A stretch of 43,017 nt of DNA from Crenarchaeota archaeon 13_1_40CM_3_52_10 (GTDB lineage Archaea; Thermoproteota; Bathyarchaeia; 40CM-2-53-6): assembly GCA_001918765.1 (NCBI GenBank), contig MNGO01000011.1, forward strand, positions 1 to 43,017. The letters are read 5' to 3'. Positions 777-41,018 of this stretch are shown here, piece by piece (positions within the stretch are counted from its first letter, which is position 1; the number at the start of each line of letters is the position of its first letter). The position numbers and the translations under genes were made by a program. The notes beneath the pieces were generated by a model that searched no databases, was not told the origin of the DNA, and worked only from the letters and a program-made list of their open reading frames with translations.

Positions 777-2033
777 CTAGGCTATGTGAAATTCACTCTC
801 GAGGAATCTTGCGAGACCGTCTTTGGTGGAGTCCCACACAATCAGGAATCCCTCTCGTGGCAGTGGTTGAAGCAAAGCCTGAGGAAATTTCTGGCTGACC
901 CAGTCAAGTACATGAATCGATTCTGCCATCTTCTGACTTAGGAAACTTGCGTAGTTGGAGCGAAGAGCCTCGGGAGGAAACTTTTCCTCCTTCAGAATCG
1001 AAAACAATAAGCCTTCTTCCTCTGGAGCCAAGATGCCTTCGGCGAAAGCAAAATCCGACCACAAACGCTTCCCTAATTCTAGAAAATCATCGACAAATGA
1101 CTTGCGTTCGTCCAAGGACAGCATACGGAGCTCCTTGTTATCAAAACCCAACACAACCCAATATTGGTTCAGTCCATGATGCGTGTTTGCCGCGAGTGTT
1201 ACTTGTTTGCCTGAGGGCCTTGTCCACTCGACCCAATCTAGAGTCGAACTTCCTTTCTTTAATGCCACACTCAGTTCTGCTAGCTTTCCCCTAAGGTCGT
1301 CTAGCGTTATCTCTTCAGTGCTCAGAAATGTGAGGTCAACTGTTTGTCCGAATCCTCCGTATCTAGTCGTACTCGACTCTTTACTGGTTGCAAACACTAA
1401 TCTCTGCACGTTCTTTCCCGAGGAATCTGAGACCGTGATGTCGATTGAAGGAGTCAACGAACAAAACTCCTTGAGTAGGCTCAGGAGCTGTTGCAGTTTT
1501 CTTCCGCGGAGCTTGCTGAGGAAAGTGTGCAATTCGCCGGATTTCATAGTGATCGTGGTTAGAGTTGGTTGAACAGTCACTCTGGAAATGTCAGCCCTAT
1601 CCAGAATAATGTCTGAACGTAATCTCTGGAGCTCCTCGATTGTGGTGATCGTGACACGTTCTATCCGGTTTGAAGCTTGTTTGGGGCTCCAGTAGACGAG
1701 AAGTATCAAGTCTACGACAGCCAAGCCCATCACAAAAGGTAAGGGAGGTAACTCTTGGGCGCCTGTTAGCTTCGCATACACAACGAGAAGAATGAGAGAG
1801 ATGATCCAAATGATGAAAATCATCATTGCTGGACGATAAGCCTTGGAAGCTATCTTGGTATATGAGACGCCTATGAAGCGATGGTCGGTCAGATAGATTC
1901 CGTAGCCCACTGGACCGCCAGTCTGTATGTAAGACCTAGACTTGAAGCTGCGAGTTGTCCGGGTCATGCCCGCGCTTGCAATTCCTCCAATGAATTGTTC
2001 CCCCTCCAATGGACGCGTGGTCAACTCAGCCAA
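777..2033 (-). CDS. Hypothetical membrane protein, probable two-domain fusion (PH-like domain with TM hairpin plus an unknown C-terminal domain)
   Basis: 418-aa ORF with two hydrophobic segments. N-terminal GEQFIGGIAS...GYGIYLTDHRFIGV resembles the ORF at 38767. Confidence 0.7.
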   Translation of the reverse strand: MAELTTRPLEGEQFIGGIASAGMTRTTRSFKSRSYIQTGGPVGYGIYLTDHRFIGVSYTKIASKAYRPAMMIFIIWIISLILLVVYAKLTGAQELPPLPFVMGLAVVDLILLVYWSPKQASNRIERVTITTIEELQRLRSDIILDRADISRVTVQPTLTTITMKSGELHTFLSKLRGRKLQQLLSLLKEFCSLTPSIDITVSDSSGKNVQRLVFATSKESSTTRYGGFGQTVDLTFLSTEEITLDDLRGKLAELSVALKKGSSTLDWVEWTRPSGKQVTLAANTHHGLNQYWVVLGFDNKELRMLSLDERKSFVDDFLELGKRLWSDFAFAEGILAPEEEGLLFSILKEEKFPPEALRSNYASFLSQKMAESIHVLDWVSQKFPQALLQPLPREGFLIVWDSTKDGLARFLESEFHIA

Positions 2034-2551
2034 TTCTCCAGTATCATGAGATTTCGTTGCTGCTCTTGGAAAAATCGGTTATGGTAGAGTTCTTTGTTTA
2101 GACGAAGAAACATGTCACTTAACTGTTTGGAAACAGATACAATGGCTTCAATCCACTCCTTCGATGAAACTGCTCCAACTTGAACGGTCTGGGGCCAGGT
2201 CACTCCCTGCGTGGGACCAGCGGAATTGACTGCTATGTAGATGCTGAGACTGTCGCCGTTCCTTTTGAGCTTGAAGCCGAACCCTGTGCCATACATCCAA
2301 AAGTTATACTCTGCATCGCTCTTTGGATTCTCCTTGAAGTCCTCAACGATGTCGAGAGTTTCATTGATCCATTGCTCCCTCGAATGCATGATTACAGTGT
2401 GCCTCGCACCTTCGACTCCAACAGAACGGAACACGTTTCTCCCGTCGATTTCAAGAGCCACAGTTGCTTCAAGAATCGAGTAGCCTTCTTCATCAGTTAC
2501 TCGCTTCTCATCCATATCAAAAAGTATGAATTGACATGCCATGGGTCCCAC
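2021..2551 (-). CDS. Hypothetical protein
   Basis: 176-aa ORF, acidic/aromatic composition, overlaps the start of the downstream ORF. Confidence 0.7.
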   Translation of the reverse strand: MGPMACQFILFDMDEKRVTDEEGYSILEATVALEIDGRNVFRSVGVEGARHTVIMHSREQWINETLDIVEDFKENPKSDAEYNFWMYGTGFGFKLKRNGDSLSIYIAVNSAGPTQGVTWPQTVQVGAVSSKEWIEAIVSVSKQLSDMFLRLNKELYHNRFFQEQQRNLMILENWLS

Positions 2552-38409: not shown

Positions 38410-38577
38410 ATGGCGAAACAAGTAACTTGCGACTGTGGTTTCATGCTACGCACACCATCTGACGATGAACTGGTGAAACATGTCCAACTTCACGCAAAAG
38501 ACACTCACAGTTTGGATCTCACTCGGGAACAAGCCCTAGCACGGGCCGTCTCAGTAGAGGCAACGATACGAGCCTAA
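38410..38577 (+). CDS. DUF1059-like small metal-binding protein (absent from ORF track)
   Basis: MAKQVTCDCGFMLRTPSDDELVKHVQLHAKDTH. Confidence 0.8.
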   Translation: MAKQVTCDCGFMLRTPSDDELVKHVQLHAKDTHSLDLTREQALARAVSVEATIRA

Positions 38578-38766: not shown

Positions 38767-39195
38767 GTGGCAAATGGTGAATCGTTTCTCGGCGGATTCG
38801 CGAGCGGATTTCTCGCGAGAGGCCTCACCCATATCGGATATGGAATTTACTTTACAACGAGCAGACTGATCGGCGTAGACCTAGGCGCGAACGGCGGTGG
38901 TGCCTTGGGAGGCACAATGGCCGGCTTCATCCATGGCGAGCTCATGCCACAGCTCTCTCCGGAAGAGAGCGCCAAGACCATAACGGATCTCGAACGGATG
39001 AAAGAGTTCGAGATGGAAAAGGAACAGATAAGCCGAATAGAATTTAAGAAACCGGGAATGTTCGGAACTGGCCATATCGTAATCACACCGAAAGAAGGGA
39101 AGCCGGAGAAGATTATTCTGCGGCACCGGATAGCCTACGATAGGCTGATGACTCTCACGAAGGCCTTCAGTCCTGAACTACCTCGCTCGTTTTAG
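38767..39195 (+). CDS. Hypothetical PH-like domain protein
   Basis: GYGIYFTTSRLIGV ... ISRIEFKKPG; paralogous to the N-terminus of 777-2033. Confidence 0.7.
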   Translation: MANGESFLGGFASGFLARGLTHIGYGIYFTTSRLIGVDLGANGGGALGGTMAGFIHGELMPQLSPEESAKTITDLERMKEFEMEKEQISRIEFKKPGMFGTGHIVITPKEGKPEKIILRHRIAYDRLMTLTKAFSPELPRSF

Positions 39196-39275
39196 GAGAC
39201 TTGTTCCAGCAACGGGATGGTCAGCAACTCCTAGTAAGTCTTAAAACTGCGCCATCTTGCTCGTTGAAATCAATA

Positions 39276-39333
39276 GGCGCGTGAGTGGTGCCTTCCACCC
39301 GTTGCGCCATACAAACCCCGGAGTAGGGAGGCA
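39276..39333 (+). promoter_or_regulatory. Candidate riboswitch (pseudoknotted leader) upstream of queT
   Basis: GGCGCG/TGCGCC stem; loop TGCCTTCC complementary to SD GGGAGGCA; CCC/GGG hairpin; TATA CTTAAAA about 35 nt upstream. Confidence 0.6.
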
Positions 39334-39334
39334 A

Positions 39335-39931
39335 ATGAGAAGAGAAACCAACGATAGAGTTACGGTATCCCGTTCTAGAAACCTCGCTCTAGCAGCCCTC
39401 TTTGGAGCACTCTATGCAGCACTGGTCATCGGATTCGCTCCAATCAGCAATCTCCCAATACAGGTGAGGGTAGCTGATGCTCTCATGCCTCTCACCATCC
39501 TCTTCGGATGGCCAGCGATCCTCGGGCTGGGAATTGGAACGGTGGTTGGTAATTCCGCCGCCGATTCGTTAACCGGTTTCCCATCAGCTTCGATCGGATT
39601 AGACATTGTGGGCGGAAGTCTTGTCAATCTTCTTGCCGGATTCTTGGCATGGAAGATTGGCCAAAGAAGTTGGAGGATACGGAACTGGAACGCGAGCTGG
39701 TTCATCGCGACACTTGTTGAAACTGCCCTGACATCGGTGGTAGTGGGTGGCTACCTGAGCGTAGTTTTCTCCATTCCATTGGGCCTTTCGATCTTGGGAA
39801 TCCTCGTGGGAGAGATTATCGCGATAAATATCGGTGGCTTCGTGCTTCTCAACATCATTGGAACATCTGGGGGCTTAGACCTTCTCAGATCGTGGGGTCT
39901 GCAAATTTACGGAACTGATCGGGACCACTAG
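39335..39931 (+). CDS. queT: QueT (COG4708) ECF S-component, predicted queuosine/7-deazaguanine precursor transporter
   Basis: ALAALFGALYAAL..APIS..IQVRVADAL..GLGIG..N; GE motif in the last TM. Confidence 0.85.
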   Translation: MRRETNDRVTVSRSRNLALAALFGALYAALVIGFAPISNLPIQVRVADALMPLTILFGWPAILGLGIGTVVGNSAADSLTGFPSASIGLDIVGGSLVNLLAGFLAWKIGQRSWRIRNWNASWFIATLVETALTSVVVGGYLSVVFSIPLGLSILGILVGEIIAINIGGFVLLNIIGTSGGLDLLRSWGLQIYGTDRDH

Positions 39932-39935
39932 ATTT

Positions 39936-41018
39936 TCAGGCGAGTTTTACCTGCTTACCTTCCGCAGGTTTTAGATCAGATAACTTAACTCCGACCAACC
40001 TCATCTTCCGTCGGTCTTTCTCGAACTCTCTGAAAAGCAACTTCACATATTCCCGGATGACTCCCAAGTCATCTACATATCCAGTATGAGTTTTTTCCCG
40101 AGTAAACGTTACGAACCCTTCGAACCGGACCTTGATCCCAACAGTCCGATACCACAAACCTTCACCCAAGAGTCTGTCGTGAACCTCGTGACTCAGAGAC
40201 TCTAACGCGTCACGAACCATAGTCTTGTTCTGAATATCTCTCTCAAAAGTTTGCTCAACACTAATCGATTTCCGCAGACCCCTTTCTTCCACCGGTGTCT
40301 CCTCGATTCCGTTCGCTATGGCCCAGAGCCATACACCGCCTTTTCCAAACCAGTCTGTGAGCTTCTTCGCCTCTACCTCGCGCAATTGACCTACAGTTTC
40401 AATCCCCTTTTCATGGAGAAATTCAGTTGTCTTCTTGCCCACGCCGCTGATCCTGTTGACTGGTAGCGGTTCTAGAAATTTGTCGACCTCTTCTGGCTGA
40501 ACGGCCGTGAGCCCGTCCGGCTTCTGCATGTCCGAGGCCATCTTCGAAATGGACTTGCTTGGAGATATCCCGACACTGACGGTGAGACCTTCTCGTTCTT
40601 TCAAGGCCTCTTTGAGTTTGGAAGCCAGAAGTTTCGCGTCATCGTAGGTCTTGCATTTCTTGCTGACATCCATGTAGGCTTCGTCGATGCTTGTCTGTTC
40701 GAAAATATCCGCAAAATCCCGCATGATATTCATCACTCTCTCCGAGGTTTCGCCATAGAGTTCGAAGTCGGGCGGGACATAGATTCCTTGAGGGCATAGC
40801 TTCCAGGCCATGCTGATCGGCATACCGGATCGAACCCCAAACTTTCGGGCCTCGTAGGAACAAGAGGTTACGACGCCGCGGCCCTTGCCATTTTTTGGAT
40901 CTGCGCCCACGATCAATGGCTTACCCTTCAACGAAGGGTCCCGATGGATCTCGCAAGACGGATAGAAAGCGTCCAGATCACAGTGAAGAATTATTCTGGA
41001 CCTTGAGCTCGTCGACAT
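39936..41018 (-). CDS. dinB: DNA polymerase IV (Y family)
   Basis: HCDLDAFY, SYEARKFGVRSGM, SIDEAY, KMASDMQKPDG. Confidence 0.96.
   Translation of the reverse strand: MSTSSRSRIILHCDLDAFYPSCEIHRDPSLKGKPLIVGADPKNGKGRGVVTSCSYEARKFGVRSGMPISMAWKLCPQGIYVPPDFELYGETSERVMNIMRDFADIFEQTSIDEAYMDVSKKCKTYDDAKLLASKLKEALKEREGLTVSVGISPSKSISKMASDMQKPDGLTAVQPEEVDKFLEPLPVNRISGVGKKTTEFLHEKGIETVGQLREVEAKKLTDWFGKGGVWLWAIANGIEETPVEERGLRKSISVEQTFERDIQNKTMVRDALESLSHEVHDRLLGEGLWYRTVGIKVRFEGFVTFTREKTHTGYVDDLGVIREYVKLLFREFEKDRRKMRLVGVKLSDLKPAEGKQVKLA

Follow-up and report, generated by a model that had tools for sequence, protein, structure and literature searches.

A conserved pseudoknot upstream of archaeal queT genes as a candidate 7-deazaguanine riboswitch

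The smallest aptamer of preQ1-I riboswitches (RF00522 in Rfam) measures about 34 nt and has characteristic conserved loop bases; these riboswitches also bind preQ0. In the preQ1-II class (RF01054) the SD sequence forms one strand of a pseudoknot, translation is controlled without a terminator, and a conserved hairpin sits within the 3′ loop, ahead of the SD strand. PreQ1-III riboswitches (RF02680) are associated with the same ligand family and the same gene family, and are about 100 nt long, with an HLout pseudoknot and a ribosome-binding site that occupies a helix of its own further downstream. In SAM-II, SAM-V and guanidine-III riboswitches the ligand stabilizes a pseudoknot in which the SD is buried. 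To our knowledge riboswitches are rare in archaea, and the known ones, the fluoride and TPP riboswitches that provide a precedent, belong to bacterial classes shared with archaea. PreQ0 (7-cyano-7-deazaguanine) is the base that archaeal tRNA-guanine transglycosylase (TGT) inserts into tRNA. Bacterial queT genes are under preQ1 riboswitch control (PMC5372724), and preQ1-I controls queT in some bacteria (PMC10018353).

The locus described here lies in a stretch of 43,017 nt from Crenarchaeota archaeon 13_1_40CM_3_52_10, hereafter the window. A preliminary description of this DNA had noted a TATA box, a structured leader of about 60 nt and a loop segment complementary to the SD of a putative queT gene, and had read the leader as a new or divergent 7-deazaguanine-sensing translational switch. 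All of its coordinates (TATA-like box, stems, linker, anti-SD, SD and ATG) agree with the sequence. The leader is a strongly conserved pseudoknot that is widespread in archaea, and positions 39276-39333 probably represent a new archaeal riboswitch class for a 7-deazaguanine, likeliest preQ0, that would act by blocking translation. The elements of the locus are as follows.

39234..39247, + strand: promoter-like element, with an A-rich stretch and then the TATA-like box CTTAAAA (39240-39246); presumed promoter function
39268..39272, + strand: predicted transcription start, placed from the position of the TATA-like box
39276..39281, + strand: 5′ strand of P1, GGCGCG; partner 39303-39308
39282..39284, + strand: joining bases TGA, which link P1 to the inner stem; (nearly) invariant across the 140 aligned sequences
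39285..39288, + strand: 5′ strand of P2 (the inner stem), GTGG; partner 39295-39298; competes with the SD for the anti-SD
39289..39296, + strand: anti-SD TGCCTTCC, 5′ strand of the pseudoknot; partner 39326-39333; its last two bases also belong to P2
39295..39298, + strand: 3′ strand of P2, CCAC; partner 39285-39288
39299..39302, + strand: joining bases CCGT, within CCGTT; invariant, being fixed by the retrieval pattern
39303..39308, + strand: 3′ strand of P1, TGCGCC; partner 39276-39281
39309..39325, + strand: long 3′ loop, made up of ATAC, the invariant AAACCCCGG (39313-39321) and AGTA
39326..39333, + strand: SD GGGAGG plus CA (GGGAGGCA), located 3 nt ahead of the ATG; 3′ strand of the pseudoknot
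39335..39931, + strand: queT coding sequence, 198 aa, the putative regulated gene; Pfam QueT PF06177, E 1.7e-21

The core of the leader (39276-39333) is 58 nt long. In the window, P1 is built from five G-C/C-G pairs and one G-U pair, and TGCCTTCC (39289-39296) pairs with GGGAGGCA (39326-39333) at 8 of 8 positions, one of them G-U. The linker ATACAAA occupies 39309-39315, and CCC at 39317-39319 is able to pair with GGG at 39326-39328. The loop-SD pairing had been described as mutually exclusive with two small hairpins, and the shared bases bear this out: the exclusivity is real because C39295 and C39296 take part in both P2 and the pseudoknot, and G39326 to G39328 in both the small CCC/GGG hairpin and the pseudoknot. 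The naming of the downstream gene was also correct, as the ORF at 39335-39931 matches PF06177. Its start (ATG, 39335-39337) is fixed by a related locus, L005, whose reading frame begins no more than 9 nt ahead of this ATG.

By itself, the fold of the window's leader is unremarkable (minimum free energy of -22.3 kcal/mol, shuffles -19.9 +/- 3.0, z -0.81), with 44 of 200 shuffles folding as well; a clear case for more than chance comes from comparison across hundreds of genomes. A leader of ~62 nt is near-invariant in eight loci of the same genus, including two where QueT is just 48-52% identical and the flanks are unalignable. The same leader of ~60 nt is found upstream of QueT genes at 29 of the 30 loci of the window's order, the exception (L014) having only a degenerate copy of 17 bits. 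A pattern scan returned at least 119 matches in named genomes, with at least 118 real copies besides the window. Among the matches listed, labels beginning with Bathyarchae account for 103, followed by Nitrososphaerota (five), Methanomethylic- and Promethearchae- (two each), Nitrososphaeria, Methanocella and "uncultured archaeon" (one each), and three MAGs with bacterial labels. The pattern match in Ferrovibrio (L061) has no anti-SD/SD logic and was dropped from the alignment as a chance match; alignment A1 leaves out both L061 and L008, the latter because it contains N. Within the class, a covariance model (R1) matches 94 of 151 genomes, and 71 of the 94 that are of high quality. It also matches 15 of the ~131 genomes outside the class in a phylum sample, and in all 15 of these a QueT-like ORF lies behind the motif. 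To judge by isolate names, the motif-bearing genomes come from soils, hot springs and sediments. The window's own genome carries one copy; a second, weak model match (C27:5689-5738, E 0.48) was taken as chance. Comparison of orthologous queT leaders had been proposed as a check on the preliminary description: across these leaders the pseudoknot is conserved and covaries, and the lack of both that had been named as counter-evidence was not observed.

Compensatory changes in relatives back both P1 and the loop-SD pseudoknot. In P1, columns 10 and 38 hold G-C in 108 and C-G in 32 of the 140 sequences and are unpaired in none, although the retrieval pattern let the two positions vary independently; columns 6 and 42 show compensatory changes too. 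The P1 pair tops an unbiased mutual-information scan, in which pseudoknot pairs are also among the top. The pseudoknot region was unconstrained by the pattern and is 96% paired. Two-sided changes affect 7 of its 8 pairs and none of 500 shuffles reaches the observed score, a significance that is overstated, just as "invariant" positions are partly so by construction, because the sequences share ancestry, come largely from one class and were in part selected by a pattern fixing P1 and the joining bases. The exchanges are extensive: columns 27/79 are U-A in 78 sequences and C-G in 54, columns 28/78 C-G in 72, U-A in 53 and U-G in 11, columns 25/81 C-G in 79, A-U in 21 and G-U in 20, and columns 30/75 C-G in 125 and U-A in eight. 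When the partner is slid by 1-3 columns, pairing falls to 48-65%. In a replication on 52 model-retrieved sequences, 40 of them absent from the first set, the pseudoknot is 93% paired. Divergent copies stay complementary (GTCTC:GAGAC, TCCGAC:GTCGGA, GCCCCC:GGGGGC, GCCCTCC:GGAGGGC and TTGCCTCC:GGGGGGCAA), and a C-run one base shorter is matched by a G-run one base shorter in both partners (columns 19/27). Each leader's own anti-SD:SD duplex has a mean energy of -13.6 kcal/mol; all 20 of 20 partner permutations are weaker (-12.3 to -12.8).

The inner stem P2 covaries modestly, and the argument for it draws mostly on conservation and a handful of variants. It is paired in 96.8% of cells, and compensatory changes are few (7 of 559 cells); one pair is U-A in 123 sequences, G-C in four and C-G in one, and variants include GGAGG/CCTCC and GGGT/ACCC. 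In the main type, 2-3 bases serve both the 3′ strand of P2 and the 5′ strand of the pseudoknot, and this overlap is retained in variants with a wholly different pseudoknot (UCCGAC:GUCGGA). The structure drawn in the preliminary description therefore stands in its outer stem, inner stem and pseudoknot, all found in relatives, whereas its small CCC/GGG hairpin was rejected as a conserved element: it shows no covariation and is 82% paired, with the third pair unpaired in 57 of 140 sequences.

Conservation extends to bases outside the helices. Since the retrieval pattern fixed GAG, the model-retrieved set alone is free of that constraint; there, most rows retain TGA, with changes in the divergent variants, and CCGTT is kept in 46 of 52 rows (read by eye). 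AAAYCCCGG is invariant in the 140-sequence alignment, where the pattern fixed it. In the model-retrieved set the sole changes to AAACCCCGG are AAAACCCGG and, in one family, AAACCCC followed by AAAA. Mutual information across the alignment revealed no pairing partner for AAACCCCGG. Inspection by eye suggests that TGG might pair with CCG, and in one family TTG with CAA, on the basis of very few variants.

The gene context points to 7-deazaguanine metabolism. A QueT-like ORF, scored with an HMM built from 74 downstream ORFs, lies within 900 nt of 109 of the 119 copies among the matches listed, and Pfam QueT matches confirm the assignment in the window, L116 and L125. In three loci (L047, L084 and L088) a radical-SAM QueE-like gene and then QueC stand directly behind the motif. 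Of the 40 QueC-bearing genomes of the class, 29 have QueC on the same strand as the motif and 0.3-2.4 kb further downstream, and the arrangement motif-queT-queC is found in 29 genomes. Behind some copies there is instead a second membrane protein of about 230 aa without a Pfam family. The proposed link to 7-deazaguanines is much strengthened by the position of the motif before QueT and by the queT-queC and QueE-like/QueC operons. The window's genome encodes TGT (E 2.5e-72). QueC had no convincing match in this genome, which is 68.6% complete, and was found in none of six genomes of the window's genus, which has the motif and QueT. Among five high-quality genomes with queT-queC operons, QueD/PTPS was found in none, and radical-SAM matches to a QueE-like query were only weak. 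General features of riboswitches are thus present in the motif: a conserved 5′-leader structure, covarying helices, conserved unpaired bases and association with several genes of one pathway.

Upstream of the leader, the promoter-like stretch at 39234-39247 is shared by the six closest loci. Anchoring 158 distinct upstream regions on P1 gives an A+T content of 80-92% at -34 to -28 and an A-rich stretch at -40 to -36; the A/T-rich box occupies the positions 34 to 27 nt ahead of P1. The TATA-like box noted earlier thus keeps a conserved distance to P1 in these regions, and is presumably a promoter element. In archaea the centre of the TATA box falls about 26-27 nt ahead of the start, and the fixed distance seen here would fit a transcript whose 5′ end lies a few bases ahead of P1. 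A run search located the leader in 18 DNA-library and two RNA-library runs, in contigs throughout. In the two RNA-library runs, contigs of relatives (mostly 90-95% alike) cover the leader and part of queT, possibly from DNA; two RNA-library contigs begin at 39279, a position that says nothing of start, strand or level, which contigs cannot show.

We propose that the leader combines an aptamer and an expression platform in two mutually exclusive folds. In the open fold, P1 would carry P2, which holds the 3′ end of the anti-SD; queT would be translated in this state because P2 occupies the anti-SD and leaves the SD GGGAGG and the ATG free. In the closed fold, P2 would open and the anti-SD (39289-39296) would pair with the SD (39326-39333), giving an H-type pseudoknot atop P1, with the A-rich and C-rich 3′ loop (39309-39325) crossing P1. 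A small molecule may bind at the junction of P1 and the pseudoknot, a putative site that would be lined by the conserved TGA, CCGTT and AAACCCCGG. The ligand would favour and lock the closed fold and therefore block ribosome loading, so that import (QueT) or synthesis (QueE, QueC) would be shut off once the base is sufficient. This direction, off with ligand, is proposed by analogy with known switches. The ligand is assigned from gene context as a 7-deazaguanine, most likely preQ0.

Several other explanations of the leader were weighed against this proposal. A 224-aa ORF opens at TTG 39257 and runs through the leader, so the conservation could reflect an N-terminal extension of QueT, or chance, with no RNA element involved; we give this practically no credence. 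The frame of L005 has no opening further than 9 nt from the ATG, the element varies internally in length by single bases, the three codon positions are equally conserved, and the paired columns covary, contrary to a coding or chance reading; the L005 frame, the length differences and the covariation refute the coding reading. Alternatively, the leader could sequester the SD without a metabolite, as a protein, tRNA or small-RNA site or as an RNA thermometer. SD/anti-SD hairpins can by themselves be thermometers, and the folding energy of the window's single sequence is unremarkable. Yet long unpaired stretches (TGA, CCGTT and AAACCCCGG) are conserved under several archaeal phylum labels, the motif is linked to a single pathway by three kinds of first gene (QueT, QueE-like and the second membrane protein), and no conserved protein gene was found to accompany the motif. 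A single temperature set-point is also improbable because the genomes span soils, hot springs and sediments, and we regard a leader of this kind as unlikely.

Equally unlikely, in our estimate, is a switch with the same RNA and the same folds that responds to another ligand: 7-carboxy-7-deazaguanine (CDG), preQ1, queuine, archaeosine base or guanine. The queT-queC operons in genomes without QueD suggest that CDG is imported and then converted by QueC, in keeping with the 29 motif-queT-queC genomes, the missing QueD/PTPS and the weak QueE-like matches. However, CDG would be useless in the window's genus, where QueC was not found in the six genomes or convincingly in the window's own, while motif and QueT are present. 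PreQ1 riboswitches govern bacterial queT (PMC5372724). PreQ0, on the other hand, stands at the end of the QueE-QueC operons and is the sole compound common to all three contexts. Against preQ1 itself, archaea are not known to make it. With the same ligand as in our proposal, the switch could also act in the ON direction, if the internal loop of the P1-P2 stem-loop were bound and the SD freed. TGA and CCGT do oppose each other there in the hairpin fold and could form a pocket. Such a switch would illogically raise import and synthesis just when product abounds. As far as is known, moreover, preQ1 riboswitches of every class and the remaining H-type pseudoknot riboswitches turn expression off by burying the SD (PMC10018353), and the ON direction is distinctly improbable. 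More doubtful still is a far-diverged member of a known preQ1 class. The motif does share with these classes queT, the logic of an SD in a pseudoknot and the preQ1-I-like H-type topology with an A-rich 3′ loop. Its core of about 58 nt nevertheless compares with about 34 for preQ1-I, its conserved bases differ, and an embedded 3′ hairpin like that of preQ1-II is unconserved. A permissive cmscan with all 4227 families of Rfam 15 gave no match at E <= 10 on positions 39100-39450 of the window (351 nt), and on 20 diverse copies (40 kb) no riboswitch family was found, the sole match being an rRNA. The proposed check against the preQ1-I, -II and -III models accordingly returned nothing in the window or these copies, and "new" is better supported than "divergent" because there are no Rfam matches at E <= 10. 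A literature search covering few subscription journals found no archaeal queT, preQ0 or preQ1 riboswitch, and an earlier description may exist.

A new class sensing preQ0 would place the supply of the archaeosine precursor under RNA-level feedback in archaea. We judge it an even chance that this is the first archaea-native 7-deazaguanine riboswitch class, with its own fold and tuned to preQ0, and that its regulon marks a salvage economy that has so far gone unrecognised in Bathyarchaeia and neighbouring groups. If so, genomes with QueT alone would import preQ0, those with queT-queC and without QueD would import CDG and finish with QueC, and the unnamed membrane-protein family of ~230 aa would be a new transporter for 7-deazaguanine bases. 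A widespread class confined to archaea would itself be new. The motif offers a handle on the archaeal 7-deazaguanine regulon, with its queT-queC operons that hint at salvage of intermediates and its unnamed membrane-protein family. As an RNA of ~60 nt it is a defined object with clear binding, mutational and structural predictions, and its canonical SD and simple logic could make it a ligand-controlled translation switch for archaeal genetics.

Of the described systems, preQ1-II (the COG4708/queT motif of Streptococcaceae/Lactobacillales) likewise lies directly upstream of queT (PMC5372724). It has in common with our motif an SD-sequestering pseudoknot before queT/COG4708, and with the proposed switch a translational control that needs no terminator. 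In contrast to that Firmicute class, the motif is archaeal, has other conserved bases, no model match and no conserved counterpart of the hairpin embedded in the 3′ loop, and instead has an inner hairpin that would compete for the anti-SD. PreQ1-I resembles it in its H-type topology, with P1 first, then a loop holding the anti-SD, an A-rich 3′ loop (beginning with ATACAAA in the motif) and an SD strand. The archaeal motif is about twice as long, has the long conserved loops TGAGTGG, ACCCGT and AAACCCCGG, pairs the full SD and not merely its first bases, and shows no match to the preQ1-I model, nor to that of preQ1-III. SAM-II, SAM-V and guanidine-III riboswitches have a general mechanism like the one proposed here; their ligands, contexts and sequences differ, and their models do not match. 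Unlike the fluoride and TPP riboswitches, the motif carries archaeal labels only, barring three contigs of bacterial-labelled MAGs and one chance match.

The open reading frame at 39335-39931 of the window encodes a QueT transporter (PF06177, E 1.7e-21) and lies next to an unnamed 147-aa ORF upstream. Reading positions 38900-40100, we found every element listed in the preliminary description in its place. They are given here together with two neighbouring genes:

38410-38577, plus strand: DUF1059 protein, 55 aa, a neighbouring gene
39240-39246, plus strand: TATA-like CTTAAAA, read in the sequence
39276-39281 and 39303-39308, plus strand: outer stem P1, GGCGCG facing TGCGCC
39285-39288 and 39295-39298, plus strand: inner stem P2, GTGG facing CCAC
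39289-39296 and 39326-39333, plus strand: pseudoknot, anti-SD TGCCTTCC and SD strand GGGAGGCA, complementary with one G-U
39309-39315, plus strand: ATACAAA, read in the sequence
39317-39319 and 39326-39328, plus strand: small hairpin, CCC facing GGG
39335, plus strand: queT start ATG, read in the sequence
39936-41018, minus strand: DinB/ImpB-type translesion polymerase, 360 aa, neighbour of queT on the opposite strand

The pseudoknot ends 2 nt before the ATG, and queT is monocistronic here. Folded alone, the window leader forms P1, the inner stem and the small hairpin (-22.3 kcal/mol), no better than shuffled sequence (z -0.81), so the case must rest on comparison.

A QueT protein search of 61 related genomes yielded 30 loci. 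Eight upstream regions from the same genus are alignable only over a block of ~62 nt ending at the start codon. This block hardly varies, even in L007 and L008, two loci with QueT proteins 52% and 48% identical and unalignable flanks. Of the 30 loci, 29 have the block; the copy in L014 is degenerate. An IUPAC pattern derived from the three most conserved stretches and applied to a single genome for each bacterial and archaeal species matched at least 119 stretches. Among the matches listed, record titles assign 103 to Bathyarchaeia/-ota/-ales, five to Nitrososphaerota, two to Methanomethylicota/-aceae, two to Promethearchaeota/-ati, and one each to Nitrososphaeria, Methanocella and an "uncultured archaeon". 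Three others are MAGs with bacterial labels (L091, L098 and L099; Methylomirabilota, Acidiferrales, Krumholzibacteriaceae); the leader and gene start of L091 are close to their counterparts in L023, a locus of the window's family, which points to mis-binning, and L091 at least is probably an archaeal contig. The match in a true bacterium (L061) is without the remainder of the motif and was taken as chance.

A covariance model of P1 and P2 (R1, 77 positions) detects one copy in the window's own genome and matches in 94 of the 151 genomes sampled from the class Bathyarchaeia (71/94 for the high-quality ones), usually one per genome. In the sample of the phylum Thermoproteota, 28 of 151 genomes have matches, 15 of them outside the class and spread over four families, and large families in it have none (0/19, 0/13, 0/13). 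One weak match (L219, G236:C1:9318-9390; E 2.2e-4) differs in sequence: it contains a AAAACCCCG stretch and has an SD ahead of an ATG. No QueT follows it, and the match may be a distant relative of the motif or a chance hit.

Covariation was assessed in an alignment of 140 distinct copies (A1), retrieved in part with a pattern in which columns 10 and 38 were each free to be C or G and in which the loop and everything after CCCGG were unconstrained. The P1 columns 10/38 are G-C in 108 copies, C-G in 32 and never unpaired, and double changes occur at 6/42 and 5/43 as well. Pairing in the pseudoknot is 96% across its eight pairs, and seven vary on both sides, including 27/79 (U-A 78, C-G 54), 28/78 (C-G 72, U-A 53, U-G 11), 25/81 (C-G 79, A-U 21, G-U 20) and 30/75 (C-G 125, U-A 8). 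Its score is reached by 0/500 column shuffles, and sliding the partner by 1-3 columns lowers the pairing to 48-65%. A structure-free mutual-information scan of all column pairs ranks 10/38, 27/79, 25/81, 28/78, 6/42 and 30/75 at the top and gives no partner for the conserved 3' loop. The anti-SD pairs with its own SD at a mean of -13.6 kcal/mol, versus -12.3 to -12.8 with the SDs of other copies (20 permutations). The pseudoknot covariation, named at the outset as a test, recurs in a second alignment (A2) of 52 R1 matches aligned to the model, 40 of them absent from A1: P1 pairing is 92.6% and pseudoknot pairing 93%, the changes again fall on both sides, and 0/500 shuffles score as high.

P2 is 96.8% paired in A1 with little variation (16/31: U-A 123, G-C 4, C-G 1, U-G 3, other 9), and 90% paired in A2, where three pairs are altered on both sides. 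The small CCC/GGG hairpin has no compensatory change in A1 and its third pair is broken in 57 of 140 copies; its G's covary with the anti-SD instead. Relatives share the P1, inner stem and pseudoknot of the original proposal; the small hairpin is dropped as a conserved feature.

At the sequence level, the divergent copies are the most telling part of the structural comparison. Their pseudoknots read TCCGAC:GTCGGA or TTCCGAC:GTCGGAA (L186, L189, L213, L216), GCCCCC:GGGGGC, TCCCCC:GGGGGA or GCCCTCC:GGAGGGC (one family, L181-L185), GTCTC:GAGAC (L080, L132) and TTGCCTCC:GGGGGGCAA (L211). The P2 sequence changes to GGAGG/CCTCC (L188, L190) or GGGT/ACCC (TCCGAC group). Every one of these copies keeps an overlap of 2-3 bases between the P2 3' strand and the pseudoknot 5' strand, and among the main types a C-run shorter by one base goes with a G-run shorter by one in both partners (columns 19/27). 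The strongest argument for alternative pairings, i.e., a switch, is that this overlap is conserved; the anti-SD pairs either with the upstream G-run (P2) or with the SD. In L189 (G091:C5), two tandem QueT-like ORFs follow one motif copy and the pseudoknot strand GTCGG is not SD-like.

Anchored on P1, 158 distinct upstream regions have an A/T-rich box (80-92% A+T) at -34 to -28 and an A-rich stretch at -40 to -36; CTTAAAA, originally read as a TATA box, is the window's version of the former. With the usual archaeal spacing between promoter box and transcription start, the RNA would begin ~4 bases before P1, near 39270, giving a predicted leader of ~65 nt, the motif alone. RNA-library contigs of relatives cover the leader, and contigs cannot show a start. 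Two from the RNA-library run X20 begin at 39279, are identical to the leader (39279-39335) and continue into a different downstream gene, which places leaders of relatives in rhizosphere RNA libraries.

Using an HMM built from 74 of the downstream ORFs to score ORFs within 900 nt, we detected a QueT-like ORF behind 109 of 119 among the pattern matches listed; Pfam confirmed QueT in the window, L116 and L125. Of the ten listed without one, L061 is the match attributed to chance, and the sequence breaks off too early in L036 and L120. In L047, L084 and L088, a radical-SAM QueE-like gene directly follows the motif, then QueC. The following loci have other genes behind the motif or exemplify a motif-queT-queC operon:

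L084, 4556-7412, plus strand: QueE-like radical SAM gene, glutamine amidotransferase-QueC fusion (483 aa), DUF2848
L043, 5327-6022, minus strand: ~230-aa membrane protein
L065, 863-1549, minus strand: ~230-aa membrane protein
L071, 4165-4866, plus strand: ~230-aa membrane protein
L072, 3856-4566, plus strand: ~230-aa membrane protein
L120: ~230-aa membrane protein
G072:C17, 21820-22985: motif-queT-queC operon
G134:C1, 395347-396518: motif-queT-queC operon

DUF2848 may belong to the archaeosine/preQ0 pathway. Pfam assigned no family to the three copies of the ~230-aa membrane protein that were tested, and BLASTP detected no relation of this protein to the window's QueT. Its nearest neighbours in a language-model search are clusters named ECF transporter S component (0.94), which is a lead only. 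A conserved 66-aa zinc-ribbon-like ORF comes after each of these genes. QueC is present in 40 of the 151 class-sample genomes, and 29 of these 40 carry it on the motif's strand, 0.3-2.4 kb downstream (coordinates compared by hand). Five high-quality genomes with motif-queT-queC operons have no QueD/PTPS (0/5) and only weak radical-SAM matches to the QueE-like query; they may take up 7-carboxy-7-deazaguanine and convert it to preQ0. The sampled genomes of the window's genus have the motif in 6/6 and QueC in 0/6, and the window's genome (68.6% complete) encodes a tRNA-guanine transglycosylase (E 2.5e-72), with only weak PP-loop matches for QueC.

Start codons of the 109 QueT-like genes among the matches listed, called by a simple rule, are TTG (41), GTG (26) and ATG (22). 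One gene has no recognised SD, and 19 have no canonical start within 14 nt after it, a few of which may be rule failures; among the 19, the homologous codon is often ACG, CTG or ATA (e.g., ACG AAA TTT GAC in L074, L075, L094 and L097).

An RNA that precedes three unrelated first genes of a single pathway bears the classic hallmark of a leader that senses a metabolite. The element is a genuine structured leader, widespread in front of archaeal genes for 7-deazaguanine transport and synthesis, in which a hairpin competes with an SD-sequestering pseudoknot. The 7-deazaguanine link proposed for queT extends to QueE-like/QueC and queT-queC genes, and conservation, covariation and gene contexts together considerably strengthen the riboswitch interpretation. 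All the gene contexts have preQ0 in common, and the likeliest reading of the motif is a new class of preQ0 riboswitch; it is possible that the ligand is another 7-deazapurine, or that the leader serves as a protein sensor or temperature sensor.

In a preQ0 riboswitch, the ligand would bind the pseudoknotted fold where it meets P1, in a pocket putatively formed by the conserved TGA, CCGTT and AAACCCCGG bases, with the A-rich loop lying along P1 as in preQ1-I, and binding would shut off initiation. The opposite sign, an on-switch, is possible. Termination control is unlikely because the leader has no run of T.

In bacteria, queT is sometimes under preQ1 riboswitches, and archaea probably salvage preQ0, according to passages of PMC5372724. 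Full-text literature searches outside most subscription journals returned no archaeal queT, preQ0 or preQ1 riboswitch, and an earlier description is possible. All 4227 Rfam 15 models, were run with permissive filters on the window leader and 20 diverse copies; their sole match at E <= 10 was an rRNA fragment in L132, where the 3' end of a large-subunit rRNA gene (2016-2277, minus strand) lies ~1.7 kb from the motif copy; the comparison with preQ1-I/II/III suggested in the preliminary description is included and gave no riboswitch match. The motif shares the H-type topology of preQ1-I and, like preQ1-II, holds the whole SD in a pseudoknot before queT. It belongs to neither class when judged by score against the models, by size, by conserved bases and by the embedded hairpin.
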